The notes under the pieces are model-generated. The model made no database searches, had not been told where the DNA came from, and saw only the letters and a list, made by a program, of their open reading frames with translations. A program made the position numbers and the translations under genes. Source: an uncultured Candidatus Saccharibacteria bacterium (lineage in GTDB: Bacteria; Patescibacteriota; Minisyncoccia; Phycocordibacterales; UBA5272). Taken from it: 64,000 nucleotides of DNA. The DNA lies in the NCBI GenBank assembly GCA_964457775.1, contig CAYWEW010000001.1, forward strand, positions 17,783 to 81,782, written 5' to 3'. Positions 1,545 through 61,021 of this stretch are shown here, in pieces (within the stretch, counting starts at the first letter, position 1; each line of letters begins with the position of its first letter).

Positions 1545-1979
1545 ATGGAAACAGTAATTCAAAAGAAAGTTCAAGGTTTGGCTGAAATGGTTATTGCTTT
1601 GAACGAGCTTTTCGGTAACCATTTGTGCCGTCTTAAGTTAAATGATGGCGCTGTCAATTTTCCGAAAAGGGATTACTCTTTCGGCGAGGCAATTGTTGGT
1701 ACCAATAATTCTTTGGTATTGAGATTCCTTATGTGTGATGACAATAGCCCTGGTGATTTGACGCCGTCGGTTCATGCGGTTGAGATGAACTTTATCAACT
1801 GCGACCACATCATCATAAATGAGCCAGGGTCAGATGACGTGTCGGTCGAGTTTTACTCAATCGATTGGCATACGTACCACAACGCCCCTGGATACGAATC
1901 CCCGATTGCCGGCTTCCAAACCGAAAGGGCTCGTCGCCTACTCGCTCCGATACATGTTGGCAAGTTAACCTACATGTGA
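1545..1979 (+). CDS. Hypothetical protein (144 aa)
   Basis: ORF with GGAGG RBS 6 nt upstream and a perfect promoter. The 3' half is GC-richer than the surroundings. Confidence 0.5.
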   Translation: METVIQKKVQGLAEMVIALNELFGNHLCRLKLNDGAVNFPKRDYSFGEAIVGTNNSLVLRFLMCDDNSPGDLTPSVHAVEMNFINCDHIIINEPGSDDVSVEFYSIDWHTYHNAPGYESPIAGFQTERARRLLAPIHVGKLTYM

Positions 1980-2029
1980 TTCGGATGTCTTTCAGAACCG
2001 CGTAACTTTTATAGTTATGTGGTTTTTTC

Positions 2030-28615: not shown

Positions 28616-29416
28616 TTACTTCTGCTGATAGGTAACTTGGTCAATTTCAACCCTTCCACCACCACCAACACGGCCGATCCAGACGCTTTCCGACTCCCCT
28701 TGTTTCGGAGAAATAATCGAGAAAGTGGCACAGAACGGGGGCCTTCCCTCTCCGTTGCCGGAGGAGAAGATGCACCTGCCAGGATTTTGCTGGGTGGCAG
28801 TGTTTTCGCGCCAATACCAAACGGCATCAGAGCGAGAAACGTGACCAGTAACTACGGGTGGAACGACGGCGGGTATGACTGGTGCAGAAGCTGTGGCTGG
28901 AATCACTGGTTTTTTTGGTTTTTCCGCCTTCGGTTTACTGGTCGGCTTTTTGGGAGTCACCGGAGCAACTACCACCTTGTCTTCCATGTTCGGCTTTTGG
29001 ACCTCACTTGTAGGACAAGCAACTTCACACTTCTTCGCCAAGGCGATTAGTGCTTGGTCAGCCTTCTTTTCAACCGAAGCAAGACCGTTCTTGACCCCCG
29101 CAACCTCGCTGTTATCAGCTTTGGTAAACCAGAGAACAGTTCCAGTAATCAGAGCAAGACCAATCGCAAGCAAACTGCACCAGGAGCAACCTTTGTTGTT
29201 CTTAGGTGAATCGCCACCGGATGACGGAGGAGGTGTGTCACCACCAAGTCCGTTTTCCCTGAAAGACTTTTCAGCCTTTCTGGCGGCGTCCGAAGCTTCT
29301 TTCGACGCGGCGTCAGCTGCTTTTTTGGCGGCTGCGGCGGAAACTGCTTTCTGTGCTGCTTTTTCCATTTCCTCCGCAGCAATGCGGAGGCCTTCAGGTG
29401 TGATCTTCTTGGTCAT
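28616..29416 (-). CDS. Hypothetical bitopic membrane protein with N-terminal Ala/Lys-rich coiled coil; GC-rich gene
   Basis: 266 aa. Strong RBS (aaggaggtcatcATG), cytoplasmic AAEEMEKAAQKAVSAAAAKKAADAASK, one TM (CSLLAIGLALITGTVLWF), Pro/Lys-rich extracellular part. The gene is about 55% GC against about 35% background. Confidence 0.55.
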   Translation of the reverse strand: MTKKITPEGLRIAAEEMEKAAQKAVSAAAAKKAADAASKEASDAARKAEKSFRENGLGGDTPPPSSGGDSPKNNKGCSWCSLLAIGLALITGTVLWFTKADNSEVAGVKNGLASVEKKADQALIALAKKCEVACPTSEVQKPNMEDKVVVAPVTPKKPTSKPKAEKPKKPVIPATASAPVIPAVVPPVVTGHVSRSDAVWYWRENTATQQNPGRCIFSSGNGEGRPPFCATFSIISPKQGESESVWIGRVGGGGRVEIDQVTYQQK

Positions 29417-29556
29417 GATGACCTCCTTTAAATTGATTTTTCAAAATATCATTAACGACTGAATTTACCTGTCGATGACTCTGTGGATGATTATATCATA
29501 TTATTATTAAAAAGTCAAGCTTTACATCTACGAAAAGTACTGCATTATTTCAAAAT

Positions 29557-29592
29557 AAAAACCCCTCTAATCTTTCGATTTGAGGGGTTTGT
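29557..29592. terminator. Terminator hairpin downstream of the lipoprotein gene
   Basis: aaaaacccctc-taatctttcgattt-gaggggttt. Confidence 0.5.
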
Positions 29593-29610
29593 TGGGAGTG
29601 CCGGATTCGA

Positions 29611-30267
29611 CTACTCCCCTTTGTGAGGATCGTCCGGCAGCATGCAGACCATGTTGCCGTCTTGCGGATGACCTTGCCATGCGAGCTTAGCCCAGACTTT
29701 GCCATCCTTACAGCGCGATGGAACTGCACTTGCAACCTTTTCGGGTTGGGTACTGTTGCCAGCGCGATGCGAGTCGTCCGGTGCCATGCAGACCATGTTG
29801 CCGTCTTGCGGATGACCTGGCCATGCGAGCTTAGCCCAGACTTTTCCATCACTACAACGGTTCTGCGGTTGGGTCATGACTTGTTGGACTTGTTGTTGTT
29901 CGCTTTCGCAGTATTTGTTACCTGCGAATGCTCCGACAAGCCCACCGATGATGGCACCGATTCCACGGTTTTCCTCACCACCAATCAGTGCACCACCTAC
30001 AGCACCAGCTGCACCGCCGACAAGTTCACACTTACCGATGTTGGCTCCTGCCTGCATCACTGGTGCAAAATTCCCTTGCGGTTGCGTAATCAGGCGCCCA
30101 TCCCAGCATTCCTGAGGTTGGCCGAGTTTTTGTGGTGCAGGAACGCACCCTGGAGGAAGACGATACGAGTTATTCGCACCGACTCCCATACCCATGCCAC
30201 CTGTTGCACATCCTCCGAGGAGGAGTGTGGCAACAGCGAGAAGTACTGCAAACAGTTTGTTTTTCAT
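29611..30267 (-). CDS. Lipoprotein with glycine-zipper (SlyB / 17-kDa-antigen-like) segment and two tandem 45-aa Cys-containing repeats; GC-rich
   Basis: Signal plus lipobox-like LLLGGC. Glycine zipper VGGAAGAVGGALIGG...GAIIGGLVGAFAG. Repeats C(S/K)DGKVWAKLAW(P/Q)GHPQDGNMVCM(A/L)PDD. Confidence 0.6.
   Translation of the reverse strand: MKNKLFAVLLAVATLLLGGCATGGMGMGVGANNSYRLPPGCVPAPQKLGQPQECWDGRLITQPQGNFAPVMQAGANIGKCELVGGAAGAVGGALIGGEENRGIGAIIGGLVGAFAGNKYCESEQQQVQQVMTQPQNRCSDGKVWAKLAWPGHPQDGNMVCMAPDDSHRAGNSTQPEKVASAVPSRCKDGKVWAKLAWQGHPQDGNMVCMLPDDPHKGE
29636..29905. repeat. Two tandem 135-bp repeats inside the lipoprotein gene
   Basis: cgtccggcagcatgcagaccatgttgccgtcttgcggatgacc... at 29641 and again at 29775 (about 90% identity). 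Confidence 0.7.
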
Positions 30268-30381
30268 GACTTTCTCCTGTAATTAGAATCAATGAGCAGA
30301 TCTCATTTGATTGGAATGATTTCCAACCTACTGAGCTGTATATAGTATACATGTTTTATGGATTTTGTCAAGCTAAATTAT

Positions 30382-48252: not shown

Positions 48253-50421
48253 ATGACTTCGTACAATCTCACATCTTCAATTTCCTCAATTGCTCGAATA
48301 AATCCTGACCATCAAGAAGGGTTAAAGCGACTACATATAGAAAACATAAGTGATTTACTTTATCATTTCCCTACTCGTTATGCAGATATACGCGAAGAAG
48401 CTCATGTTGTAAATATAAAAAAGGGAGACCAGGTTACTATTTATGGTGTCATGGAAAAAGTCACTATCAAAAGAAGTTTCAGAGGACATATGCCAATGAC
48501 AGAAGCAAGAGTTGCAGATGATACTGGAATAATAAAATGCATTTGGTTTAATCAAGCATATATTGGCAAGATGTATCCTGACGGAACCAAGGTAAAAGTT
48601 GCGGGGGTGGTTAATGAAGATAGCCGTGGAGTATTCCTTTCTAATCCAACAATAGAACGACTAGTTGCACTACCTGAACACAGTGACTCACTTTTCGCAT
48701 CCACTGTTGCTCCAGAATTTCTTACACCTATATATAGAGAAACAAAGGGTGTCTCATCTTTATATCTTTACACACTCATCAAGAAAGCTATTTCAGGTGG
48801 AGTACTCGATAATGTCACTGACCCTATTCCATCACATATAACCAAAAAACTTCACCTTCCAGAATTAAAAGATGCGCTTCTTTATATTCACTTTCCAAAG
48901 AACGAAGCCTTAACTGTGGCTGCTCGTAAAAGATTCGCTTTTGAAGAAATATTTTATCTTCAACTAAAACAATATAAAGAAAAAGTTGAAGCCAAACATT
49001 CTCTTGCTTATCCCATAACTATCGACAACAAAGAAATTGATAAGTTCATCAAATCCTTCCCCTTTACTCCAACTAAGGCCCAATTAGATGCCATAGAATC
49101 AATTTTAAAAGACGTTTCAAGAAAAGAACCAATGGGAAGACTGCTTGAAGGTGACGTTGGTAGTGGTAAGACTTTTGTTGCTGCGGTTGTGTCGCATGCC
49201 ATACTACAAAATAGAGTTGGAAAATCTGGAACAAATCTTCAAATTGCATATATGGCCCCAACTGAAATTTTGGCCAAGCAACACTTCGAAAGTTTTATTA
49301 GTTATTTTAAAGGAACTGGAATTGAAATTGGGTTGTTAACCAGCGCTGGTTGTTCGAAGTTCCCAAGTAAAACTGACAAAACGTCCCACACTACTATTTC
49401 CCGTGCACAATTACTTAAATGGTTAGCTGATGGCAGAGTATCAATTGTTATAGGAACACATTCACTTATTCAAAAAACAATACAATTTTCTAATCTCGCA
49501 TTAATTATTATTGATGAACAACATCGCTTCGGAGTAAAACAACGAAAACTTCTAGCTTCTAAAAAAGGTGAAGTCAGAAAAGAACTCCCTCACCTACTAT
49601 CGATGACTGCTACCCCGATTCCACGAACACTAGCTCTCACTATCTTCGGAGACCTAGACCTCACTGTAATTGACACAATGCCAAAGGAACGCAAAAAAAT
49701 TATTACTGAAATAATAAAAAGTAAAGACAGGACTGAAACCTATGAGAAAATTCGTAAAGAATTAGAAGCTGGACGACAAGTCTATGTAATATGTCCACGT
49801 ATAGATGAACAAGATGAGGAAGAAGCTCAAAAAAGAACTTTAAAAAGTGTGAAGGAGGAAGCGAAAAGATTATCAGAAATTATTTTCCCAGAATTTATTG
49901 TTGATATCTTGCACAGCAAAATGAAAAAAGAAGAGAAGGAAGAAGTTATGCAAGATTTCTTGGATAAAAAATCTGACATATTAGTTGCTACTTCAGTTAT
50001 CGAAGTTGGTATCAATGTACCGAATGCAACGGTGATTGTTATAGAACACGCTGATAGATTCGGACTCGCACAACTTCACCAACTTCGTGGTCGTGTCGGA
50101 CGACGAGAGTACCAATCCTATTGTTATCTGTTTACTGAGAGCGTTGGCGAGATAACACAAACACGACTGAAGGCACTAGTTAATGCAAAGAATGGGTTCG
50201 AGCTTGCAGAAGCAGATATGATGGCACGTGGCATAGGAATGCTTATGGATGGAAAACAGTGGGGAATTAGTGATCTTGCAATGGAAGCTATTAAGAATCC
50301 GAAGTTAGTTGAGATAGCACGTGATGAAGCGCGCGAGTTACTCGATAATGACGGAACATTAGAAAATTATCCCGACCTAGCAGAAATAATTAAAAGTCGC
50401 GAAACTGTTCACATGGAATAA
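48253..50421 (+). CDS. recG: ATP-dependent DNA helicase RecG
   Basis: Wedge/OB N-domain, helicase motif I LLEGDVGSGKTFVA, DEQHRFG, C-terminal helicase domain; 722 aa. Confidence 0.9.
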   Translation: MTSYNLTSSISSIARINPDHQEGLKRLHIENISDLLYHFPTRYADIREEAHVVNIKKGDQVTIYGVMEKVTIKRSFRGHMPMTEARVADDTGIIKCIWFNQAYIGKMYPDGTKVKVAGVVNEDSRGVFLSNPTIERLVALPEHSDSLFASTVAPEFLTPIYRETKGVSSLYLYTLIKKAISGGVLDNVTDPIPSHITKKLHLPELKDALLYIHFPKNEALTVAARKRFAFEEIFYLQLKQYKEKVEAKHSLAYPITIDNKEIDKFIKSFPFTPTKAQLDAIESILKDVSRKEPMGRLLEGDVGSGKTFVAAVVSHAILQNRVGKSGTNLQIAYMAPTEILAKQHFESFISYFKGTGIEIGLLTSAGCSKFPSKTDKTSHTTISRAQLLKWLADGRVSIVIGTHSLIQKTIQFSNLALIIIDEQHRFGVKQRKLLASKKGEVRKELPHLLSMTATPIPRTLALTIFGDLDLTVIDTMPKERKKIITEIIKSKDRTETYEKIRKELEAGRQVYVICPRIDEQDEEEAQKRTLKSVKEEAKRLSEIIFPEFIVDILHSKMKKEEKEEVMQDFLDKKSDILVATSVIEVGINVPNATVIVIEHADRFGLAQLHQLRGRVGRREYQSYCYLFTESVGEITQTRLKALVNAKNGFELAEADMMARGIGMLMDGKQWGISDLAMEAIKNPKLVEIARDEARELLDNDGTLENYPDLAEIIKSRETVHME

Positions 50422-50467
50422 TTGAGGTGGAAATTTTCCATTATTTTTGATATAGTTTAGAGCAATT

Positions 50468-50540
50468 GCATCCGTAGCTCAGTTGGTAGAGCCGTCGTCT
50501 TATACACGACTGGTCCCTGGTTCGAGTCCAGGCGGATGCA
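50468..50540 (+). tRNA. tRNA-Ile with unusual UAU anticodon (reads AUA)
   Basis: Manual fold: acceptor GCATCCG/CGGATGC, D-arm GCTC-AGTTGGTA-GAGC, anticodon stem GTCGT/ACGAC with loop CTTATAC (U33, UAU, A37), T-arm CCTGG-TTCGAGT-CCAGG, discriminator A, no CCA. Confidence 0.75.
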
Positions 50541-50745
50541 CAAAAGAACGAAGTGAATTTTGTGCATCCGAAGAAACACAACTGCTTGTGTTTCGTCTGG
50601 ACGAGAAAGCCACAAGCATATTTTGCTAGCAAGCAAAATGCTATACCTAAAAGGTCATTCTGTTGAATGAGGAGTGACTGATTAGAAAATCATGTCGTGA
50701 GACCAAAGCAAAAATTTTTGTGACAACAAAAATTTATTTGTAGGA

Positions 50746-50766
50746 GAGTCCAGGCGGATGCACAAA
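50746..50766 (+). repeat. 21-bp direct repeat of the tRNA-Ile 3' end (att-like)
   Basis: gagtccaggcggatgcacaaa is identical to 50524-50544. Confidence 0.7.
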
Positions 50767-50866
50767 TTACGCACCTGTTCACAACTAGTATTTACTTACT
50801 TTTTTGTGGGTGTACCATTAAGTTAGGCTCTTTAAAGTAAGACTGTTCAAAAAAGGAGGAATCACC

Positions 50867-51094
50867 ATGAATGCAATAGATTCAGTTTCAAATGTATCAC
50901 GACTGCAACCTCAATCCGGAGTTGCAAATGAACCCAAAGCGTCTGCAGTTAAGACAAGAGAAGAAGCTCCGCCTTCATCTGTTGTTCATCTCAGCAGAAA
51001 AATAGAACCTGACACAGATGTCGGATACGGGCATTTGTCAGACAGGAAAAATGCTGGGCGGTCACCATACCCAGCTGATGTTCTGAAATCGTAA
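50867..51094 (+). CDS. Small hypothetical protein (75 aa)
   Basis: RBS aaaggagg 7 nt upstream. Terminator aaaggcgacc-ttgt-ggtcgccttttt at 51115-51142. GC higher than background. Confidence 0.45.
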   Translation: MNAIDSVSNVSRLQPQSGVANEPKASAVKTREEAPPSSVVHLSRKIEPDTDVGYGHLSDRKNAGRSPYPADVLKS

Positions 51095-51214
51095 CTACGC
51101 TACGATTCAAACATAAAAGGCGACCTTGTGGTCGCCTTTTTGTATTGAGCACAACACAAATAAAATATGATAGTATTCATTTAGAAAGTCCTATCTTAAT
51201 TACGAGGAGTTAAA

Positions 51215-51529
51215 ATGAGTAGAGAAGAATACACTTTTATTGGTGGGATGATTGCTGGTCAACACTGTATGGTTTTGAATCCAAGGCACCCATCATGGAC
51301 AAAAGAAGAGGATGACCGTTATCGAAGAGATTTTTTAAGTGAAATTTATATGGATACATCTATAAGTGAATTTCGTCACGGTTGTCGTACCAATCTCGGT
51401 CGTTATAATGGTCGAGACATAGAAAGACTTTCTCTTCCTGATGTGTTGCAATTATGTTTTCCAGAAACACCAGAAGAAGCAATGCTTGCGTTTTCTATCT
51501 CAAACTTTTGGGTTGGGAGAGTTTTGTAA
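51215..51529 (+). CDS. Small hypothetical protein (104 aa)
   Basis: RBS gaggag. Terminator aaaggcaatc-gcaa-gattgccttttt at 51543-51570. Confidence 0.45.
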   Translation: MSREEYTFIGGMIAGQHCMVLNPRHPSWTKEEDDRYRRDFLSEIYMDTSISEFRHGCRTNLGRYNGRDIERLSLPDVLQLCFPETPEEAMLAFSISNFWVGRVL

Positions 51530-51606
51530 ATCATTCACCAAAAAAAGGCAATCGCAAGATTGCCTTTTTGTATTTTAACTACACACTACCAACTACGTAC
51601 TATTCT

Positions 51607-53517
51607 TTATACTACTTCCACTTTCTTCTTCACTGGTATACCATGTAGAGTTAAAATCTTTTCAAACTCCTCTCTTTCAATATTTTCTACACGCATAAGT
51701 TCTTCTGCGATAGCAACTAGCACTGTACGTTTATCAAGAATAATATTTCTAGCTCTCTGCCATGCTTCATCTAAGATACGCTTCACTTCGCCATCGATTT
51801 TTTCTCCATACGCTTCACTATATTCTTTGCTGTAGAAAACACTACGTTGTTCTCCTTCTGGTACATAAGTCACCGGACCAAGTGTACTCATACCATAACG
51901 CGTAACCATAGCGCGAGCCATCGCTGTTGCTACTTGCAAATCATTTGATGGGCCAGTTGTGATATCACCAAATATTTCTTTCTCTGTAACATAACCACCG
52001 AGTGACATCGCGATATCATCCAAGAATGTCGCACGACTCATGAGTCGTCTTTCATCAAGCGGAAGCTTAAGTGTATACCCTCCAGCGTGTCCTCGAGCAA
52101 TAATAGATATCTTATGTATTGGGTCAGCATCAGGTAAACATGATGCAACAAGAGCGTGTCCTGCTTCATGATATGCAGTTATTTTCTTTTCTTGTGGAGT
52201 AAGCACATGACTCTTTCTTTCGGGACCGAGCATAACCTTTTCAATAGAGCGTATGAGGTCATACTGTGCGACACTCTTTCTTTCTTCCCGTGCTGCTAGG
52301 ATTGCTGATTCATTCATAAGTGAATAAAGATCTGCACCAGAAAATCCTGGAGTGCGTTCTGCGATGACTTTCAAATTAACATCTTCTGCGAGTGGTTTTA
52401 ATTTTACATGCACACCAAGTATTGCTTCACGATCATTTCTGTCTGGCAAATCAAGTGTGACTCGTCTATCGAATCTTCCTGGACGAAGAAGTGCTTGATC
52501 AAGTACATCCGGTCTGTTAGTTGCTGCCATAATAATCAAATTCATAGTTGGTTCGAATCCATCCATCTCAACCAGTATTTGATTAAGTGTTTGCTCACGT
52601 CCTTCACCTTGACCACCGAGTGACGGTGAACGTGTGCGTCCAACTGCATCTATTTCATCAATAAAAATAATTGCTGGTGCCGCTTTCTTTGCCATGTCAA
52701 ATAAATCACGCACACGAGACGCTCCTACACCGACGAACATCTCTTCGAATTCACTTCCAGATAAATGGAAGAATGGTACTGCTGCCTCACCTGCCACAGC
52801 ACGAGCAAGCATTGTCTTTCCTGTTCCTGGTGCCCCCATCAAAAGAACCCCTTTTGGAATTTGTGCGCCTATGTCTGTAAACTTTTGTGGAGCTCGAAGG
52901 AATTCTACGATTTCTAATAATTCTTCTTTAGCTTCTTTTGCACCTGCAACGTCTTTGAACAGTATTTTTTCTTTCGTGTCGTCTGGATAAATAACTTTTG
53001 CACGTGATTGTCCAAAAGAAAGAGCTTGAACATTTGCTCCTTTGATTCCACGAGCTAGCCACCAAATCATGAATCCTAAGAAAAGAATTGGAAGTATGAT
53101 TGGAATAAGTGAACCCCAAAATGACAACCCTCTCTCAGACGAAACGGTAATCGTAGTTGTTGCGAGTGTTGAAGTGCTAACTCCGTATATTTTGAGTGCT
53201 TCAAGAATTGAAACCCCTGTTTCTTTTTTACTTAAAACTTTTGTTTTATCTATTTTTTCTCCTGTAAGGGCATCTCCTTCTACAGTGATTGCTATTATTT
53301 GTTGTTGATTAACAAGCTCTGCAAATGAAGAAAGTGGAATAATTGGTGTGGCTTTCTTTTCAGAAAAAATAGAGTACCCCCAAACTAGGAACATAAAAAT
53401 AATAAAGGAACCGAACAACTGCTGAGAAAAACTCTGCACCTTTTTTGCAGTTGTAACTTTTTCCCCATCCTTTTTTGTTATTTTTCCTATTTTTGGCATT
53501 TTCATCTTTTTCATCAA
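51607..53517 (-). CDS. ftsH: ATP-dependent zinc metalloprotease FtsH
   Basis: N-terminal TMs, AAA module [18 protein letters not shown]...DEIDAVGR, protease HEAGHAL motif. Confidence 0.9.
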
Positions 53518-53569
53518 ACCATTCTATCATATTCAACTAAATAGGTAATGTATATGCTAAAATCTAAAT

Positions 53570-54001
53570 ATGCGTTTGATAGATAGTAAAAAACTACATC
53601 TCACTTATGTAATAACAGATAGCCTTGAAGCAGGTGTTGAGCTTTTTGGTTTTGAGGTAAAGGCTCTACGTAAAAAGTTGGGTTCACTTGATGGTGCTAA
53701 GGTTTTAATTCGTGGTGGTGAGGCATTTCTTGTTGGTGTTTATATTCCACCATACCAAGTAGCGAATACTCCGAAGGGTTATGACCCCTATCGTACTCGT
53801 AAATTACTTCTCAAAAGATCTGACATTGAGAATTTGTACAACAAAGAACAATCAAAGACCTTGACATTACATCCAAATTCATTGTATTCTACACACAACC
53901 TCATTAAATGTGAGGTTGCTGTTTGTAAGAAAAAAGATAGTAAAGATAAGCGAGAAGATATTAAGAAAGATATTGCTCGCAGAGAATTACGTTCTATATA
54001 A
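53570..54001 (+). CDS. smpB: SsrA-binding protein SmpB
   Basis: 143 aa; GxEVKAL and RTRKLLL motifs; tmRNA gene lies directly downstream. Confidence 0.85.
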   Translation: MRLIDSKKLHLTYVITDSLEAGVELFGFEVKALRKKLGSLDGAKVLIRGGEAFLVGVYIPPYQVANTPKGYDPYRTRKLLLKRSDIENLYNKEQSKTLTLHPNSLYSTHNLIKCEVAVCKKKDSKDKREDIKKDIARRELRSI

Positions 54002-54044
54002 TCACGACAACGTGTCTGAATTTTAAAATTAAGAATATTACCTT

Positions 54045-54128
54045 AGATACGCGAAGCAACAAATTTTTAGAAGAAGGCGTACTAATAGTACGACGACTGA
54101 TAAAAATGAAGTTGCGACAAAGTAGATG
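54045..54128. repeat. Copy b of the ~85-nt structured repeat family, 23 nt upstream of the tmRNA 5' end
   Basis: tacgcgaagcaacAAATTTTTAgaagaagGCGTACtaataGTACGaCgactgaTAAAAATgaagttgcgacaaagtagat. Confidence 0.55.
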
Positions 54129-54151
54129 AGGTAAGATTGTTTATTTTAATT

Positions 54152-54538
54152 GGGGGTGACTTTGGCTTCGATACTAAGAATATGATGTATGTGCTGTATC
54201 GAGACTGCTCTTACACTCGTAAACGTTTTGAGCAACCATGTTGCAAACTCAACTGGCAAGGCTATCCGTTCGCCATACGCGTTCGGACTAGTTCCAGCAT
54301 TCGTCTAATTTAGACCTATCTGGTGTCCTTCTTTTTCGTATCTACGGAAAAAGTCTGGGCAATATAACAGAAGATGTAGGTTATCTTGTTGCATAGCAAC
54401 CTAACCGAAACAAACATGCTATACATTCATTGTTTTCGTTTGTTTTCTATAATGAATACGAACACATGAAGCAAACTACATACAGTAGATTCATGCACCA
54501 TACATTATTACACGCGGGTTCAATTCCCGCCACCTCCA
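54152..54538 (+). ncRNA. ssrA: tmRNA (ssrA), one-piece, ~387 nt, CCA not encoded
   Basis: 5' GGGGGTGACTTTGGCTTCGAT and 3' CACGCGGGTTCAATTCCCGCCACCTCCA match the conserved tmRNA tRNA-like ends; acceptor strands pair. Candidate tag ORF GCA AAC ... GTC TAA at 54243-54308 (ANSTGKAIRSPYAFGLVPAFV). Confidence 0.7.
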
Positions 54539-54592
54539 CAAATACAAAATACTCCACCCCTCTGGTGGAGTATTTTGTATTTGTGGAGGTGG
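54530..54592 (+). terminator. 29-bp perfect hairpin that includes the tmRNA 3' acceptor strand
   Basis: CCACCTCCACAAATACAAAATACTCCACC-cctct-GGTGGAGTATTTTGTATTTGTGGAGGTGG. Confidence 0.5.
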
Positions 54593-54617
54593 AGAAAGCC
54601 AACTGCTTGGCTTTCAA

Positions 54618-54804
54618 GGGAATTGAATACTGGGTCGCGAAATCATCTGTTACGAACAAAGTGAGTAACTGATTTTGTGACCAATTCCCCCACCTTCGTC
54701 ACTTTCGGGGAACTGAATGCGGGTCGGGAATCTGCTTCGATCAAAGCTGATTAGTAAATCACGTCGGGAGACGCTAGGCAGATTTGTGACCGATTCCATC
54801 TCCT
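54618..54804 (+). repeat. Two tandem structured units (79 and 98 nt) downstream of tmRNA; each has a long-range closing helix and ends with a degenerate copy of the tmRNA 3' end
   Basis: Unit 1 GGGAATTGAATaCtGGGTCGcGAAATCATCTG...CTGATTTTGTGACCAATTCCCCCACCT. Unit 2 GGGGAACTGAATgCgGGTCGgGAATCTG...CAGATTTGTGACCGATTCCATCTCC. Compare tmRNA TTCAATTCCCGCCACCTCC. Confidence 0.5.
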
Positions 54805-54902
54805 AAAATAAAATTTGATGTTGATTTGATATCTCCCCTCTTGTATTGTAGGATACGAAACAGAACTCATTTTGAGTCGTGTACTTTTAAAGGGAGAAAC
54901 CC

Positions 54903-55562
54903 GTGAACGAAATCACTTTACATGCTATTGCTACAAAATTCGTTGACCTCATCTTGAAGTATCAGGACAGTTGGCAAGTAATTACAGAGTTACCAGAAAA
55001 CGAAATGTCTGTATTTTTTTTAATTGTCAGAACAGTTGGTTTTGAAATAACAGAAGTAAAAGAAGGAAAACTTGTTGGTCATTATCATGACCAAGACGGT
55101 ATCACTGGGAAAACGTATCCGATCAACAAACTTTGTCCATTTAAAGTAGTCAATAAAGATCGTGATAACTACAACGCAACAAATTGGTTAGATAGTATGT
55201 TTTCTACTGTAATATCTTCACACAATGGTAAGCCCTACGGGGAATATGATCTACTTGTCGAAAGAGTAATTGAAGCTGTAAGAAAAAGTATTCACCTTAC
55301 TCCTGTTTTGTTGACATCTGAAGGCGACACGCTGCGTGAATATCCATCTGACAATCTTTTCAAACACACAAACGATAGCGACAAACTTGGTTCAAGTGTC
55401 GGTGTTCACAAAGTTTGTAATGGATTCATGGACCGAAAATCTACAACAGAAACACACGATGTAATTCTCTGTAGAAGTTGTGGACTTAGAGTTTCTTTCC
55501 CAAACACAATAAAAACATACGGTGAACTGAGGCAATTCTTTAACTCAAAGCTTAACAATTGA
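54903..55562 (+). CDS. Hypothetical protein (219 aa), GTG start, C-terminal Cys cluster
   Basis: RBS agggag; HKVCNGF...CRSCG possible zinc-binding; no recognisable domain. Confidence 0.45.
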   Translation: MNEITLHAIATKFVDLILKYQDSWQVITELPENEMSVFFLIVRTVGFEITEVKEGKLVGHYHDQDGITGKTYPINKLCPFKVVNKDRDNYNATNWLDSMFSTVISSHNGKPYGEYDLLVERVIEAVRKSIHLTPVLLTSEGDTLREYPSDNLFKHTNDSDKLGSSVGVHKVCNGFMDRKSTTETHDVILCRSCGLRVSFPNTIKTYGELRQFFNSKLNN

Positions 55563-55681
55563 AGCATTAACCTTTTGCAACAATCCCCAACTCCTATCTA
55601 GTAACTATATGTGAACGGTGGGAGTTTTTATAACAAAAATGCCACTAACTTTCGAAAGTGGCATCTGAGAAACTTTTTCAT

Positions 55682-56167
55682 TTAACGCGAAACATCTCCA
55701 CAAAACTTACAAACACCTTCAGAATAAACACCGAGGCAGTTTTTGCTTATATGAATCCTTGCATGAAAATTGTAGCTGTCTGCCAAATTAACCGCAAAAT
55801 TAACCATGGAATTCATTCCCTTTCTTTCTTTGTTACTGAACATGCTTCTACTGACAGCTTCAAAGACACCTCCTGAAATGTATCCTTTATTATTTTTTTG
55901 CCAAATCTCTGATGTTTTTGAAACAATGTTATGGTCAAGACCTTTACGCGGAACTGGCCAAGTTACAACTTCTATTGGCTCTTCAGCTACTGATAAATCA
56001 TATTTTGGGAGACCAGCTTTTTCCTCAAGCTTCCGTAAACAATCATCAATACTTGAGCCGACAACATTCATACGAATATGTTGTGGTGGGCTAATAATTT
56101 GACTAACCCTTCCAAAAATTCCAAAACCTTGAAAAAACCCAATCATTTTTTGACTGATGGATAACAT
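55682..56167 (-). CDS. Hypothetical protein (~161 aa) with C-terminal CxxxxxxCxxC
   Basis: Start set at ATG 56167, which has GGAGG upstream (MLSISQKMIGFF...). Confidence 0.45.
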   Translation of the reverse strand: MLSISQKMIGFFQGFGIFGRVSQIISPPQHIRMNVVGSSIDDCLRKLEEKAGLPKYDLSVAEEPIEVVTWPVPRKGLDHNIVSKTSEIWQKNNKGYISGGVFEAVSRSMFSNKERKGMNSMVNFAVNLADSYNFHARIHISKNCLGVYSEGVCKFCGDVSR

Positions 56168-56344
56168 GGCACACCTCCGTAATGTGTAGACATTTAAAAA
56201 AACTACTGAGTGCATCCTACTATAATGAATAATATAGTCAATAAAAATAAATACTCAAACCCTTCCCAATATTCCAATAATATGTTATAAAATATCTAGC
56301 CAAATTTAGTCAAATTTTGTTCATTAACTAAAGGGGAAGTAGCT

Positions 56345-56902
56345 ATGAGTGACGTTGTGATTGCACTACGCGGTGACGAGTCCGAAAAACTCATCAATGG
56401 AATTCGTGCAGTTGTTACACCCTTTGTCGGTATATCTGGCGAGGGGTACCGCGCGCAACTCGGCATTGGTCTTGCGATTTCGGGAAATACAGCGATTTTT
56501 TGGGGAACCATTGTTCCTCATTCATTGATTCAGTCCTGGCGTGGTATGAAAATACTTGAACAGGCTGATTCCATTAATTCCACTGAGACATTGTGCTCGT
56601 GTTTCACTGTTGCTAAAAACGATATCAACAATGCAACAAATCACTATATCAAATCATTGGCTCGTTCTTTTGGAGGAGTGGATGCTTTGCAAGATATTCG
56701 TTATGAAATACTACGCTCTTTTCCAACCGCTGACGAAATCACAACCATGATTACAAAGTTGCGCGAACATAACCTTCCTGTTGACACCCGAGAGATTGAA
56801 GAGGCGGTGAACCTTAACCACATTGCAGATACTTCCGTCATAAGGGAGATGATTCGCACAAACCGTGAATTGTTCTCACGCGCCGTCCTCAATTTTGCTT
56901 AA
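56345..56902 (+). CDS. Hypothetical protein (185 aa)
   Basis: RBS aaagggga; perfect terminator CCCTCTTGATGAATTC...GAATTCATCAAGAGGGTTTTTG at 56913-56958; GC elevated. Confidence 0.45.
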   Translation: MSDVVIALRGDESEKLINGIRAVVTPFVGISGEGYRAQLGIGLAISGNTAIFWGTIVPHSLIQSWRGMKILEQADSINSTETLCSCFTVAKNDINNATNHYIKSLARSFGGVDALQDIRYEILRSFPTADEITTMITKLREHNLPVDTREIEEAVNLNHIADTSVIREMIRTNRELFSRAVLNFA

Positions 56903-56987
56903 CCCCTTTTCAACCCTCTTGATGAATTCCCTCAAACAGAATTCATCAAGAGGGTTTTTGTTTGTATTGTAATAAGAGAACATTTTA

Positions 56988-57545
56988 TTGCCCTTCATGT
57001 ATTTATATGGTATTATCTATGTATATAACCCCTTGGCAGAAAAAGTAAACATCAATAATAATATCCGTTCACTAAAACTTCGTGTCATTGGACACAACGG
57101 AGATAACTTAGGTGTTCTCACAAAAGATGAAGCTTTAGCTCAAGCAAAAGCTCTTGGACTAGACCTTATCGAAGTATCTCCTCATGCTGAACCCCCTGTT
57201 GCTCGTATTGCTGATTACGGAAAGTACACATATGAAACTTCTAAGAAATTAAAAGAAGTTAAAGCAAAGGCACACATCACTGAAACCAAAACAGTACAGA
57301 TTAGTGTGTCCATTAGTGATAATGACCTTATGATGAAAGCTAAGAAAACTGCTGAGTGGATTAATGAAGGCCACCGTGTAAAAATCGACCTACAATTAAA
57401 AGGCCGTACAAAATATATGGACGACAAATTCCTTCGTGAACGCATGAATCGCATTTTGGCTATTATCCCTGCGGATTATAAAATTGCTGAACCTTTGAAG
57501 AAGATTCCGAAGTCTATGATGGTGGTACTGGAGAAGGCTAAGTAA
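56988..57545 (+). CDS. infC: Translation initiation factor IF-3; start codon uncertain (possibly non-AUG)
   Basis: INNNIRSLKLRVIGHNGDNLGVLTKDEALAQAKALGLDLIEVSP aligns with the IF-3 N-domain. The C-domain follows. Canonical infC-rpmI-rplT order. Confidence 0.8.
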   Translation: MPFMYLYGIIYVYNPLAEKVNINNNIRSLKLRVIGHNGDNLGVLTKDEALAQAKALGLDLIEVSPHAEPPVARIADYGKYTYETSKKLKEVKAKAHITETKTVQISVSISDNDLMMKAKKTAEWINEGHRVKIDLQLKGRTKYMDDKFLRERMNRILAIIPADYKIAEPLKKIPKSMMVVLEKAK

Positions 57546-57554
57546 TTTAAATAC

Positions 57555-57582
57555 TTGACAAAAAGTATCAGTATGATATACT
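57555..57582 (+). promoter_or_regulatory. Promoter TTGACA-16-TATACT upstream of rpmI-rplT
   Basis: ttgacaaaaagtatcagtatgatatact. Confidence 0.45.
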
Positions 57583-57781
57583 GTTACTTGTCCGACGGAG
57601 AGGGTTCTCCGTTAAGCGACCTAAAATCAATTAGCCAGATTCTGGTGGTCCCTACTGCATTGTGCGGTGGGGACTTTTTCGTTTTGTAATATACTCACTT
57701 AAACCAATGTACGAAGCCCTTGATATTCTTGATAATGTATGATAAAATACCCCAACTATCTGAAAGGTATAGAAAAATTCT
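57583..57781 (+). promoter_or_regulatory. ~200-nt structured leader with attenuator-like hairpin + U-run upstream of rpmI (candidate L20-responsive ribosomal-protein leader)
   Basis: ACGGAGAgggtTCTCCGT hairpin, then GGTCCCtactgcattgtgcggtGGGGACTTTTTCGTTTTG. Confidence 0.3.
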
Positions 57782-57970
57782 ATGAAGACAAACAAATCAT
57801 TCTTAAAACGTCTCCGTGTTACCAAAAATGGTAAAATCTTAGCTCGTAAGCCAGGACTTAACCATTTCAATGCAAAAGCATCACGATCAAAGCAACTTGC
57901 TGGCAAAAGAGCTCAGGATTTTGCTATGACAGGAAAGGAAAAGTCACGTTTTCTTCCAGGAATGTTCTAA
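57782..57970 (+). CDS. rpmI: 50S ribosomal protein L35
   Basis: MKTNKSFLKRLRVTKNGKILARKPGLNHFNAK... Confidence 0.85.
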   Translation: MKTNKSFLKRLRVTKNGKILARKPGLNHFNAKASRSKQLAGKRAQDFAMTGKEKSRFLPGMF

Positions 57971-58006
57971 TCCTTTAAGACTCATTAATTTATTTAATCA
58001 ACCACT

Positions 58007-58357
58007 ATGTCACGCGTAAAAAGAAGTTTAATGGCGATGAAGCATCGCAGAAATGTACTCAAGCAAGCTAAAGGCTTTCGTTTTGGTCGTTCAAAGAAAG
58101 AAGTAGAAGCAAAGGTTGCTCTTCGTCATGCTGGAGCTCATGCTTTTGCACACAGAAAAGACAAGAAGACTGACATGCGTCGCCTCTTCACTACTCGTCT
58201 TAACGCTGGACTACGCGCTCTTGATATTACTTACTCTGTTTTCATTGGAATGCTATCAAAGAAGAATATTTCAATAAATCGTAAAATGCTCGCAGAAATT
58301 GCAGCAGAGAACCCAGAAACATTCACAAGAATTGTTGCACAAGTTCGAGAAGCGTAG
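58007..58357 (+). CDS. rplT: 50S ribosomal protein L20
   Basis: MSRVKRSLMAMKHRRNVLKQAKGFRFGRSK... Confidence 0.9.
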   Translation: MSRVKRSLMAMKHRRNVLKQAKGFRFGRSKKEVEAKVALRHAGAHAFAHRKDKKTDMRRLFTTRLNAGLRALDITYSVFIGMLSKKNISINRKMLAEIAAENPETFTRIVAQVREA

Positions 58358-58439
58358 AGCTTCGAAGAGTTCCGTAGCTAGCAAGCGAAGGAACGTTCAT
58401 AAACTACTAAGTCAAAAGTATAAGGCACTTAAAAAACAC

Positions 58440-58470
58440 AAAAGCGACATCTTAAGATGTCGCTTTTGTA
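58440..58470 (+). terminator. Terminator hairpin (identical to the 17309 copy)
   Basis: aaaagcgacatc-ttaa-gatgtcgcttttgtattttt. Confidence 0.6.
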
Positions 58471-58514
58471 TTTTTACAAACTCCATCAGCACAGACTTTA
58501 GTCAAAAATTGCTT

Positions 58515-58598
58515 TAGCTACGCGAAGCATAGATATTTTTTAAAGAAGACGTAGTAGACCTACGGCGACTGAAAAAAATATCTTAGCGACAAAGTAGA
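58515..58598. repeat. Copy c of the ~85-nt structured repeat family, 16 nt past the stop of the LOG-like gene
   Basis: tacgcgaagcatAGATATTTTTTaaagaagaCGTAGtagacCTACGgcgactgAAAAAAATATCTtagcgacaaagtagat. Confidence 0.6.
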
Positions 58599-58613
58599 TA
58601 AAATAATTTTTAA

Positions 58614-59186
58614 CTAAAGTCTAAGTTCCCTTTCGCCGTTAAGCTCTTGCTTTCTTACCATCTTAATCAACTTTTCTATCATTATTTTTGGGTCTTTTTC
58701 AAAAATAACATTTGGATTTGTTCGATCACTATTTTTTATGATATTTTGAATCACTTCATCTGTCGCCCACTCTCCAACAAGTACTCCAAGAGGCATATTA
58801 GCTTCCCAAGCCACTGTAAACTCATGAATAGTACCAATACGACCACAACCAATTACAACCGCATCTGACGAGCGTATAAGCATGAGGTCGCGTCCAGGAA
58901 AACCGAACCCTGTGTATACGACGGTGTCCATAGCCTTAAGTGGTAATCTGTACACCTCCACATGTTCTTTCTTGCTTGCTGCAGGAGAAAGACCAAAAGA
59001 AAATCCCCCTGCCTCCTTTGCCCCTTCAGCTGCATACATAGGAAAACCGCTTGTTGCACCTGTAACAATCTGACATCCTTGTCTAGCAATCTCACGACCA
59101 ATTTCTTTAGCAATTGGTATTACAGATGGTCCACAATGTGCTATTTCAGCAGCGCCTGAGACACTGATAGTAATTCGTTGTTTCAT
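58614..59186 (-). CDS. LOG-family / TIGR00725-type Rossmann-fold nucleotide-binding protein (lysine-decarboxylase-like)
   Basis: GATSGFPMYAAEGA and VVIGCGRIGTIHEF match the LOG GGGxGxM / PGGxGTxEE motifs. Confidence 0.55.
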   Translation of the reverse strand: MKQRITISVSGAAEIAHCGPSVIPIAKEIGREIARQGCQIVTGATSGFPMYAAEGAKEAGGFSFGLSPAASKKEHVEVYRLPLKAMDTVVYTGFGFPGRDLMLIRSSDAVVIGCGRIGTIHEFTVAWEANMPLGVLVGEWATDEVIQNIIKNSDRTNPNVIFEKDPKIMIEKLIKMVRKQELNGERELRL

Positions 59187-59225
59187 TTTACTAGTATATA
59201 GTTACTGGTTGATAGTTACTAGTGG
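59187..59225 (-). promoter_or_regulatory. Promoter cassette: CCACTA + three tandem heptamers + TATATACT + 6 nt + ATG (likely short-leader or leaderless mRNA)
   Basis: Minus strand reads CCACTAGTAACTATCAACCAGTAACTATATACTagtaaaATG, 31/33 identical to the cassette at 4751-4783. Confidence 0.45.
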
Positions 59226-59230
59226 ACTAC

Positions 59231-60604
59231 TTAATCTAATTCAAGAACATCCCCTCTTTCTGGAACAACAACCGGAACATCATATGTTTCGTGAATTCGT
59301 TGACCTAAGAAATATGTACTCTTTGGTTCACCAAGTACAACAATCACCTTCTTAAGTGACGGAGCAGTTGTACCAACGAATTCAACAAGATGCTCTGAGT
59401 CTTTGTGCGCAGAGAATCCATGAATGTTAACCACACGCGCTCGAAGTGGAATCATATTTCCATTAATGTATAGTTCTTTTTCTTCATCAACTATACGGCG
59501 TCCTAATGTATTAACCGCCATATATCCGACAATAATAATTGTACTGTTTGGATCTGGAAGATACTTCGCCTCATGATGTAAGATACGTCCACCATTACTC
59601 ATACCACTTCCAGCGATAATAACTTTTGGACGATTATCACCATTAATAGCCTTACTCTCTTCTGGTGTTGCTGTTTGTATTAAACCCTTGAATGCAAAAA
59701 TATCATCACCACTTTTAATTGTAGCCTCAATATTTTCATTGAACCAACTGTCATATTTTTTATAAATTTTTGTAATATTAATACCAAGTGGGGAATTAAG
59801 GTAAACAGGAATTTCTGGTATTTGCTTACTTTCAACTAATTCATTAAATGCGAGTAACATTTCTTGTGTGCGTTCAATAGAGAATGCTGGAATAAGAACT
59901 GTACCTCCCTTTGCAACCGTACTTACAACCGCCTCCTTAAAAATCTCAATACGTCTATCCTTGTCTTTGTGATTTCTGTCTCCATATACACTCTCAATCA
60001 CCAAGTAATCAATATCCTTAAGCGGTGTTGTGTCTTTCATTAATGGTGAAGGGGTATTCCCGAGATCACCAGTAAAGGCAAGTTTCTTTCCTTTGTATGC
60101 AATTTCAACAATTGAACTTCCCAGTATATGTCCAGCATCATGTAGAGTAATTACAGCATTACCATCATTTGTTTCTATGACAAATTCCTTTTCATAAGTA
60201 AGTGTTGTTCCCCATAGGTGCATACTCTCAAATACATCTTTTTCTTCATAAATCATTGGCGCACCTGAGTGAAGCGACTCTTTTGTTAAAAGTCCCAATG
60301 AATCAAGCATGATAAGTTCTGCCATTTCACGCGTAGGTTCGGTACTGATAATTTGATTTTTGAATCCTTCACGAACAAGATATGGAATACGTCCAACATG
60401 GTCAAGGTGAGCGTGAGTCACAAAAAGATAGTCAATACTTTTTGGGTCATAAATAAAAGGTGCACTGTTAATCGGAATAGAATATTTCTCGCCTTGTACA
60501 AGACCGCAGTCAATGAGAATTTTTTTGCCTCCGAATTCAACTAGGAAGTTGGAACCTGTAGGCATTTGAGCGCCACCCGCAAAAGTAATTTTAAATGTAG
60601 ACAT
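59231..60604 (-). CDS. MBL-fold beta-CASP hydrolase (RNase J / CPSF-like RNA-metabolising enzyme)
   Basis: HxHxDH motif VTHAHLDHVGRIPYL; 457 aa with downstream beta-CASP-like region (His/Asp-containing motifs). Confidence 0.65.
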   Translation of the reverse strand: MSTFKITFAGGAQMPTGSNFLVEFGGKKILIDCGLVQGEKYSIPINSAPFIYDPKSIDYLFVTHAHLDHVGRIPYLVREGFKNQIISTEPTREMAELIMLDSLGLLTKESLHSGAPMIYEEKDVFESMHLWGTTLTYEKEFVIETNDGNAVITLHDAGHILGSSIVEIAYKGKKLAFTGDLGNTPSPLMKDTTPLKDIDYLVIESVYGDRNHKDKDRRIEIFKEAVVSTVAKGGTVLIPAFSIERTQEMLLAFNELVESKQIPEIPVYLNSPLGINITKIYKKYDSWFNENIEATIKSGDDIFAFKGLIQTATPEESKAINGDNRPKVIIAGSGMSNGGRILHHEAKYLPDPNSTIIIVGYMAVNTLGRRIVDEEKELYINGNMIPLRARVVNIHGFSAHKDSEHLVEFVGTTAPSLKKVIVVLGEPKSTYFLGQRIHETYDVPVVVPERGDVLELD

Positions 60605-60664
60605 GAGAATAGTTGGTGGTTATTAGTTACTGGTTCTTAGTTTAATACTAAAAATTAAAAATAC

Positions 60665-61021
60665 CTACTTACGAACAAAAAGGTAGGCAATACTCATACC
60701 AATAAACCCATTAATTAAATCTTTTATTGTATCTACCCAACCTCCCCAGTCTTGAGCAAACATTACGTCGTGTATATATTCATAAGCTTCCCATGTAACT
60801 GCGATCATGATGTAAGTCAAGTATAATTTCTTATATGAGACAGAATTTCCTTTATATGAAAGAATTGCCCCTGTAAGTGATGCAACTCCGAAACCTCCCA
60901 TAATATGCATCGGAATATCTAACCACCATAATTCATAATATAAATATGAAGGATCAAAAACGAATTTTGAAAGACAAAACAATATAATAAGATATGATGC
61001 TGAAATAATGATATGTTTCAT
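60665..61021 (-). CDS. Small 4-TM membrane protein, possibly VanZ-like
   Basis: 118 aa; C-terminal DTIKDLINGFIGMSIAYLF. Assignment is weak. Confidence 0.4.
   Translation of the reverse strand: MKHIIISASYLIILFCLSKFVFDPSYLYYELWWLDIPMHIMGGFGVASLTGAILSYKGNSVSYKKLYLTYIMIAVTWEAYEYIHDVMFAQDWGGWVDTIKDLINGFIGMSIAYLFVRK

Follow-up and report, generated by a model that had tools for sequence, protein, structure and literature searches.

In the 64,000-nt window of an uncultured Candidatus Saccharibacteria bacterium analyzed here (contig CAYWEW010000001.1), the interval between ssrA, the gene for transfer-messenger RNA (tmRNA), and infC contains only three open reading frames (ORFs), designated ORF1, ORF2, and ORF3. 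On balance, this interval is probably a mosaic, which consists of a decayed integration hot-spot on the 3′ flank of ssrA, one accessory cassette carrying ORF1, and two resident genes, ORF2 and ORF3. ORF1 occupies a self-contained, monocistronic cassette of ∼0.82 kb, extending from a sigma-70-like promoter to a terminator. It belongs to a patchily distributed family, the members of which lie, far more often than expected by chance, immediately downstream of a tRNA or tmRNA gene (together, t(m)RNA genes) and in its orientation. The three ORFs sit where the initial annotation had put them, ahead of infC and directly after ssrA, and the interval is free of an integrase, as noted there: it holds nothing beyond ORF1–3, none of which matches a recombinase family.

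Conservation at this locus was found for ORF2 and ORF3 in relatives (loci L007–L010), with ordinary GC content in L007, but not for ORF1. In the window, the genes are arranged in the order ftsH, smpB (53570–54001), ssrA, ORF1–3, infC, rpmI, and rplT. Loci L007–L009, which stem from two assemblies labeled "Ca. Gracilibacteria bacterium," are collinear with window positions 50002–60700 at ∼80% nucleotide identity; their order is recG, tRNA-Ile(UAU), ftsH, smpB, tmRNA, ORF2, ORF3, infC, rpmI, rplT, LDcluster4, and a beta-CASP gene. ORF2 and ORF3 are located between ssrA and infC in L007–L009 (81% and 55% amino acid identity, respectively) and again in L010 (64%). The GC content of the L007 homologs is 38.1% (ORF2) and 36.3% (ORF3), that of the L007 locus 37.3%. 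ORF1 is absent from L007–L010, and the site in L007 is empty and contains a single repeat unit of the kind described below. In L010, the tmRNA gene is followed by one such unit, two unrelated genes (a DUF2726 gene and one encoding 199 amino acids), a tmRNA 3′ end in degenerate form, a second unit, ORF2, and ORF3. No integrase or recombinase was called in the gene tables (Pfam marks) of L007–L010. The proposal in the initial annotation that the three genes are horizontally acquired cargo is supported in part only: the ssrA flank is variable and ORF1 is accessory, patchy, and missing from the closest relatives, whereas ORF2 and ORF3 are syntenic and the GC content of the interval is normal. As for the hallmarks of a genomic island, an empty site in relatives was found for ORF1 only, and neither atypical composition nor an integrase was observed. 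The DUF2726 gene of L010, which is restriction-endonuclease-like, and the adjoining gene for 199 amino acids (1852–3012, minus strand; 29.7% GC) lie between a complete tmRNA gene and a degenerate tmRNA 3′ end, and the case for foreign cargo is clearer there than in the window.

The 3′ flank of ssrA is a small, decayed integration hot-spot. The tmRNA gene was recognized full length at 54152–54541 (plus strand) by its Rfam model (RF00023, 89.3 bits, E 2.4e-33; 3′ end GGGTTCAATTCCCGCCACCTCCACAA), which confirms the position of the ORFs behind ssrA; ARAGORN did not call the gene, the terminus of which is ACAA, with no encoded CCA. Its end is part of a perfect 29-nt inverted repeat (54530–54592, plus strand; 100% complementary, 5-nt loop), in which the 3′ acceptor strand of the tmRNA (CCACCTCCACAA...) pairs with its own trailer, and which holds the terminator hairpin and T-run of the tmRNA gene. 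An equivalent long hairpin is kept in L010, where the inner sequence differs and the pairing is retained. Two repeat units follow on the plus strand. Unit A (54593–54697) is composed of AGAAAG-hairpin-CTTTC and, thereafter, GGGAATTG ... CAATTCCC CCACCT; unit B (54692–54806) is 5′-truncated, joined to unit A at ACCT, and ends with CGATTCC-ATCTCCT. Each unit of ∼100 nt thus named has the same architecture: behind an AGAAAG-hairpin-CTTTC element, there is a long stem (GGCGGAATCG...CGATTCCGCC), in which the 3′ strand copies the T-loop, T-stem, and acceptor end of the tmRNA, with the complement of that end lying upstream.

The ends of the two units differ in their origin. That of unit A is a degenerate copy of the window genome's own tmRNA 3′ end (CAATTCCC variant), and this unit is extra compared with L007; that of unit B is a degenerate copy of the tmRNA 3′ end of the relatives (CGATTCC variant), and this unit aligns with the single one in L007. 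The copy closing the unit is intact in L010 (CGATTCCGCCCACCTCCACAAA) and degraded in L007 (CGATGAAGCCCACCTCCACAAA). In the window, the degenerate copies CAATTCCCCCACCT (end of unit A) and CGATTCCATCTCCT (end of unit B) directly precede the ORF1 cassette. Of the att-like repeats reported in the initial annotation, only degenerate versions of the tmRNA 3′ end, embedded in the two tandem units at 54593–54806, were recovered; an exact repeat is absent from the window, where no second copy of the 26-nt tmRNA 3′ end with three or fewer mismatches was detected. Units of this kind are what serial integrations at ssrA would leave behind after decaying to their att-proximal arms.

The units are also structured. 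A consensus structure derived from five unit copies of three genomes (those in the relatives being located on the minus strand at ∼6780–6900 in L007, and at ∼3150–3260 and ∼1110–1290 in L010) contains 31 predicted pairs, of which 8 show compensatory changes, and the repeat region folds far better than shuffled sequences (z = −9.4). Searching 54500–57100 against Rfam at a permissive threshold resulted only in hairpin-like pseudo-miRNA matches, with no match for the repeat unit. A scan of IMG/VR with a 15-mer of the unit yielded at least 120 matches, which were taken as chance given the short pattern and are uninformative. The ∼100-nt unit may represent a miniature integrative element without coding sequence (attP arms) or, alternatively, an RNA of a new type.

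The ORF1 cassette begins directly after the last tmRNA-3′-like repeat; compared with L007, the window-specific segment extends from ∼54815 to 55636. Upstream of the coding sequence (54903–55562, plus strand; 219 amino acids, GTG start), the region 54823–54902 (plus strand) comprises a promoter-like site (TTGATA at 54826, a 17-nt spacer, and TAGGAT ending at 54854, according to a promoter scan), the 5′ untranslated region (5′-UTR), and the Shine–Dalgarno (SD) motif GGGAG. Downstream, an intrinsic terminator read from the sequence is located at 55590–55630 (plus strand), with arms at 55590–55598 and 55617–55625 preceding a T-run. Immediately beyond the cassette, the hairpin ATGCCACT...AGTGGCAT (55639–55664), which is the terminator 3′ of ORF2 on the minus strand, matches, in the alignment with L007 and L010, the hairpin that in L007 directly follows the tmRNA-3′-like repeat.

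The same cassette is present at locus L011, where ORF1 is 67% identical and, in a different context, is followed by btpA and then infC. Homology between the two loci forms a block that spans 54790/54823 to 55630 and includes the promoter-like site, the 5′-UTR, the coding sequence, and the terminator. The latter is kept in L011 with A-U pairs in place of G-U, and the block stops there. By-eye estimates from the printed alignment put the identity of the non-coding parts at roughly 85–88% versus roughly 70% for the coding sequence. Both cassettes are preceded by a similar tmRNA-3′-like stretch, CCRATTNC-TCTYYTAAAATA. Where the infC region starts, a 33-nt stretch (57022–57054 in the window, 1969–2001 in L011) is 100% identical despite the 67% identity of ORF1, and it may, from this conservation, possibly be an infC leader or autoregulatory element. 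As the relatives are labeled "Gracilibacteria," an alternative genetic code (TGA for glycine) was considered and rejected for this locus: long conserved genes are intact under code 11, and a 1-nt indel that separates the window from L011 right after the TGA of ORF1 confirms TGA as a stop codon here.

ORF1 has 35 full-length homologs (38–67% identity) in Patescibacteria, the hosts being Moranbacteria, Wolfebacteria, Kaiserbacteria, Berkelbacteria, Minisyncoccia, and others. Two collection scans fetched 45 ORF1-related loci, some of them redundant; together, the protein look-up and the genome and metagenome scans gave 39 non-redundant loci. A pattern scan of 185,579 species-representative genomes resulted in 10 ORF1 loci. 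Adjacency to t(m)RNA genes was counted for those non-redundant loci that had at least 500 nt of upstream sequence (n = 29), and downstream for 17 loci. A tRNA or tmRNA gene on the same strand, ending no more than 500 nt before the ORF1 start, was present at 10 of the 29 loci, which, at an empirical background of 2.3% per 500 nt, corresponds to a binomial P of ∼5e-10. Within 500 nt downstream of ORF1, no t(m)RNA gene was found at any of the 17 loci. Two more t(m)RNA genes were located upstream at 800 and 1112 nt, and one tRNA gene on the opposite strand at 142 nt, so that 12 of the 13 upstream t(m)RNA genes within 1.2 kb are co-oriented with ORF1.

The adjoining genes are those for tRNA-Ser (GGA, twice; UGA; GCU), tRNA-Leu (CAA, twice), tRNA-Val (CAC), tRNA-Trp (CCA), tRNA-Lys (UUU), and tmRNA; those for tRNA-Phe (GAA) and tRNA-Lys (CUU) adjoin ORF1 homologs as well, further off or on shorter contigs. 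Copies with 84–86% identity adjoin tRNA-Ser(GGA), tRNA-Ser(GCT), and tRNA-Trp in one case and tRNA-Val and tRNA-Phe in the other, and they have no flanking genes in common. At the tRNA-Ser loci, the homology of the cassette starts immediately past the CCA end. Beyond the coding sequence, the promoter, the 5′-UTR, and a GNRA-capped terminator are conserved across distant lineages of the family: distant Patescibacteria share the 5′-UTR motif AGCACATTCCCAAACC and the terminator GGGCGGGtAAGA-GAAA-TCTTcCCGCC plus T-run (carriers of terminator or motif being L005, L012, L013, L014, L015, L016, L019, L020, L021, and others). At some loci of the family, the terminator is followed by AAAGAATTTGCCGCCA-AAGAAAA.

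These observations would be consistent with small elements integrating serially at ssrA and decaying to structured units that end in copies of the tmRNA 3′ end; relatives have either one unit (L007) or two units split by other cargo (L010). ORF1 would be an accessory gene that moves or is transferred as a cassette by recombination at sites flanking t(m)RNA genes. The recombination functions for this cassette would probably be supplied in trans, as in cargo-only, cis-mobilizable remnants of tRNA or ssrA islands. Several results weigh against such a history. Direct repeats of the tRNA 3′ end were not significant 3′ of ORF1 homologs, neither with exact seeds nor by local alignment with shuffles; partial tRNAs, sought through T-loop motifs, do not systematically flank ORF1 outside the window locus; and the 136 ORFs that surround ORF1 at 25 loci include no recurrent integrase or transposase. 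An island context is not evident because the genes next to ORF1 appear to be mainly of housekeeping families. Furthermore, about half of the ORF1 loci are without a nearby tRNA gene, and the distance from tRNA to cassette is variable (59–1112 nt). Finally, ORF1 of L011 is also positioned upstream of infC, with the tmRNA-3′-like stretch before both copies. As L011 shares this position and the preceding stretch, gain in the lineage of the window and loss in the relatives are both conceivable, and the arrangement fits an ancestral position of ORF1 directly downstream of ssrA.

The arrangement in L011 is the starting point for an explanation that we regard as unlikely, yet as deserving serious consideration: ORF1 could be an old resident gene directly 3′ of ssrA (elsewhere, of a tRNA gene), which was displaced by later integrations at ssrA and deleted in L007 and L010. 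Its adjacency would then reflect a link with t(m)RNA genes in function or transcription (read-through, t(m)RNA biology) and not mobility. Besides the stretch preceding the cassette in the window and in L011, and the shared location upstream of infC, such a link would agree with the tRNA-Leu gene of L015, which is separated from the start codon of ORF1 by only 59 nt, with no promoter in between. The homology that begins at the CCA end at the tRNA-Ser loci, the housekeeping flanks without integrases, and the co-orientation of 12 of the 13 upstream t(m)RNA genes point in the same direction. Against a resident gene speaks its patchiness, with 10 loci retrieved by the pattern scan of the 185,579 genomes, as does the occurrence of copies as similar as 84–86% beside different tRNA genes in unrelated surroundings. 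The identities of these genes are very diverse (serine with three anticodons, leucine, valine, lysine with two, tryptophan, phenylalanine, and tmRNA), and a promoter of its own, together with an upstream terminator, usually accompanies the cassette. Moreover, two independent losses (L007 and L010) would be required.

Structure prediction was informative for ORF1, for which AlphaFold2 returned a confident model (predicted local distance difference test score, pLDDT, 92.7; predicted template modeling score 0.81), matching no solved or viral fold; that of ORF2, built from four sequences, is unusable (pLDDT 37.8). In the ORF1 model, two helical hairpins and a four-stranded sheet are combined with a β-rich module at the C terminus, which carries a histidine/cysteine quartet and is followed by a helix. 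The C-terminal cysteine clusters that the initial annotation had seen in two of the proteins were recovered in ORF1, where they are invariant in 35 sequences, and in ORF2, where they are invariant in four. In ORF1, the cluster has the zinc-ribbon-like form HxxC...CxxC (H169, C172, C190, and C193), and its knuckles lie on strands 165–169, 175–180, 185–190, and 196–200 of the model (pLDDT > 95), as in a zinc ribbon, the binding itself being predicted. Across the same 35 sequences, N75, S129, E146, H155, Y206, and R210 are also invariant and D142 and D158 near-invariant; further motifs are YPIN and HTRD.

Foldseek searches with the ORF1 model found no match in the PDB (best E 0.24) and, in BFVD, a best E of 0.026 with a match probability of 0.09. 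A profile search of the family against PDB sequences yielded only sub-threshold zinc-ribbon matches; similarities below threshold had an E of 0.03 for Zn_ribbon_RPAB4 and of 0.34 for Pol II subunit 12. No relatives of ORF1 were found in IMG/VR, nor was there similarity to families or folds of the HNH, GIY-YIG, LAGLIDADG, DDE, or tyrosine/serine recombinase type. Reading the "HD...CxxCH" stretch as HNH-like was ruled out by its spacing and by the lack of Pfam or fold support. ORF1 is probably a zinc-ribbon nucleic-acid-binding protein.

That ORF1 itself mobilizes a minimal element made up of this one gene, as a recombinase or homing endonuclease of a new kind, is improbable. According to this explanation, the zinc-ribbon protein would recognize the conserved T-arm/3′ end of t(m)RNA genes and insert a cassette of ∼0.8–1 kb downstream, requiring neither a canonical integrase nor long att repeats. 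ORF1 is indeed the sole gene common to all loci, in a unit of ∼0.8–1.0 kb with its own promoter and terminator, and no other recombinase recurs nearby. The many different adjoining t(m)RNA genes share only the T-arm and 3′ end, and a zinc ribbon combined with invariant polar residues, in a fold that has no solved relative, would suit such a function. Terminal inverted repeats and target duplications, however, were not detected; there was no sign of more than one ORF1 copy per genome, and no similarity to a nuclease or recombinase fold. The spread of tRNA-to-cassette distances (59–1112 nt) and the roughly one-half of loci with no tRNA gene close by are likewise at odds with it. An accessory cassette mobilized in trans is, of these explanations, the one preferred here.

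ORF2 and ORF3 are resident, divergently transcribed genes that have been kept vertically at their position, and they are neither recent foreign cargo nor a toxin–antitoxin operon. ORF2 (55682–56167, minus strand) encodes 161 amino acids; an extension to 177 amino acids from a TTG/ATG start is possible, the homologs having 161–175. ORF3 (56345–56902, plus strand) encodes 185 amino acids. The divergent intergenic region (56168–56344) is a 177-nt spacer with promoter-like minus-strand sites at 56258–56214, as indicated by a promoter scan. SD-like motifs precede ORF2 (GGAGGTG) and ORF3 (AGGGGA) in addition to ORF1, in accordance with the initial annotation, which had also described a clean terminator: ORF3 is followed by an intrinsic one (56912–56963, plus strand) with a hairpin at 56912–56956, formed by a perfect 18-bp stem and a 9-nt loop, and a T-run.

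The phyletic distributions of ORF2 and ORF3 differ. ORF2 is lineage-restricted, with three homologs (81, 80, and 64% identity), and its C-terminal cluster is composed of H135, H139, C144, C153, and C156. ORF3 belongs to a large family: a word-indexed search found three homologs, whereas with a profile, the number of clusters (50% identity) was 360 for E ≤ 1e-3 and 222 for E ≤ 1e-10, with PHxLIQSWRGMKxLEQ and TLCACW as family motifs. Together with the 35 homologs of ORF1, this leaves none of the three as the ORFan it had been called. Many relatives of ORF3 are long forms of 320–370 amino acids (P0045, P0047–P0051, P0054, P0057, P0064, P0065, P0069, and P0078) with an extra conserved C-terminal domain (SLGVFF.DLGI.NF ... 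GGYG.DWGHI.L.ELD), for which there was no Pfam match. That these are fusions of ORF3 and ORF2 was rejected, the extra domain being unrelated to ORF2. Distant ORF3 homologs are found in other surroundings and have no ORF2 as a partner, and their divergent neighbors are not ORF2-like.

The interval is not distinguished by its base composition. The initial annotation had given 45–48% GC against ∼35%; the values are 38.0% for the interval and 37.0% for the window, and the interval ranks at the 66th percentile among segments of 2058 bp. For the individual genes, the values are 36.2% (ORF1), 36.4% (ORF2), and 44.3% (ORF3), so only ORF3 stands out (GC at third codon positions, GC3, 0.41). Its syntenic, 55%-identical homolog in L007 (5499–6044) has 36.3%, and the 3′ third of ORF3 has no alignment with it at the DNA level. 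From these comparisons, ORF3 appears to be a fast-evolving gene with a lineage-specific compositional shift.

The origins suggested for the three genes in the initial annotation, that is, defense, toxin immunity, or a phage remnant, were not borne out. None of the three proteins matched a family at threshold in Pfam, NCBIfam, PADLOC, or PHROGs, the best E value being 0.013 (ORF3 in PHROGs). In PADLOC-DB 2.0, there was no defense family at E ≤ 1 for any of them, which leaves a defense origin without a match. Toxin–antitoxin domains were represented only by RelB_like_antitoxin at a sub-threshold E of 0.22; a type II toxin–antitoxin operon does not fit because ORF2 (minus strand) and ORF3 (plus strand) are divergent, and the occurrence of ORF3 homologs without ORF2 is at variance with toxin immunity, too. 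As for phages, PHROGs had no match for ORF1 and ORF2 and only such of E ≥ 0.013 for ORF3, and IMG/VR, searched with ORF1 only, had none. That the three genes form one GC-rich, horizontally acquired islet at ssrA is thus largely refuted and can hardly be maintained: the position next to ssrA with att-like repeats, the variation of the site among relatives, the composition of ORF3 (44% GC; GC3 0.41), and the lack of annotation for all three genes are compatible with it, yet the GC content of the interval equals the background, ORF2 and ORF3 are syntenic in relatives at ordinary GC, the phyletic patterns of the three genes differ, ORF2 and ORF3 are divergent, distant ORF3 homologs lack ORF2, and the defense, phage, and domain collections hold no match.

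With respect to known systems, the locus is ordinary in kind, a t(m)RNA-linked variable site plus conserved hypothetical genes. In Dehalococcoides, ssrA-specific genomic islands have tandem direct repeats of the ssrA 3′ end, and some of their segments lack an integrase and are termed "cis-mobilisable" (PMC3146451). In both cases, a variable region starts right after the single-copy tmRNA gene, copies of the tmRNA 3′ end (from T-loop to terminus) are repeated at boundaries, the cargo differs between relatives, and there are segments without an integrase. Whereas the Dehalococcoides islands measure several kb and have repeats up to 100 kb downstream of ssrA, the units here are ∼100–170 nt long and the cargo 0.8–2 kb; unlike there, neither the ssrA–infC interval nor the loci inspected in relatives contain an integration module, the window has only degenerate repeats, and conserved, core-like genes (ORF2 and ORF3) lie beyond them.

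The tRNA-linked islands of Prochlorococcus contain partial-tRNA remnants from successive integrations (bioRxiv 10.1101/2020.12.28.424599). Remnants of these tycheposons resemble the present locus in that the genomes are streamlined, flexible genes are located by tRNA genes, partial-tRNA remnants occur, and the cargo is uncharacterized. Tycheposons carry tyrosine recombinases and replication modules, whereas ORF1 cassettes are single genes amid housekeeping neighbors and, outside the window locus, have no detectable partial-tRNA repeats. Free-standing homing-endonuclease genes and minimal insertion sequences share with ORF1 the size of a single gene of ∼0.7 kb, its own expression signals, a patchy distribution, and near-identical copies in different contexts; unlike them, ORF1 has no similarity to known nucleases or recombinases, no terminal repeats, and no target duplications. 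At the protein level, the HxxC...CxxC β-hairpin knuckles at the C terminus of ORF1 are like those of zinc ribbons of the RPABC4/Rpb12 type, but the matches are sub-threshold and cover ∼20 residues, while the remaining ∼170 residues have no relative.

For annotation, this means that the call of a GC-rich ORFan island is corrected to that of a miniature ssrA hot-spot, with ORF1 as the only variable cargo here. Unexplained, and potentially interesting, are the bias of the ORF1 family toward the flanks of t(m)RNA genes and its unmatched fold: the family is uncharacterized and confidently folded, and its preference for the 3′ flank is not accounted for by integrases or att repeats. Should a targeting mechanism underlie the bias, genes would have a new way of moving in ultra-small genomes lacking classical mobile elements; should the bias stem from function, ORF1 would point to a t(m)RNA-linked protein of a new kind.

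Two further features of the window lie outside the ssrA–infC interval. Its sole truly GC-rich stretch is located at 28616–30282 (52–55% GC versus 37%), where one of the reading frames encodes a glycine-zipper protein (Gly-zipper_Omp/Rick_17kDa_Anti); the high GC content may be due to the glycine codons of this protein. The tRNA-Ile gene that belongs to the collinear region (50468–50541, plus strand) has the anticodon TAT (UAU), and a 98.7% identical copy is present in L007 (10745–10818). A tRNA-Ile(UAU) is unusual in bacteria, the usual form being the CAU (lysidine) tRNA-Ile2.

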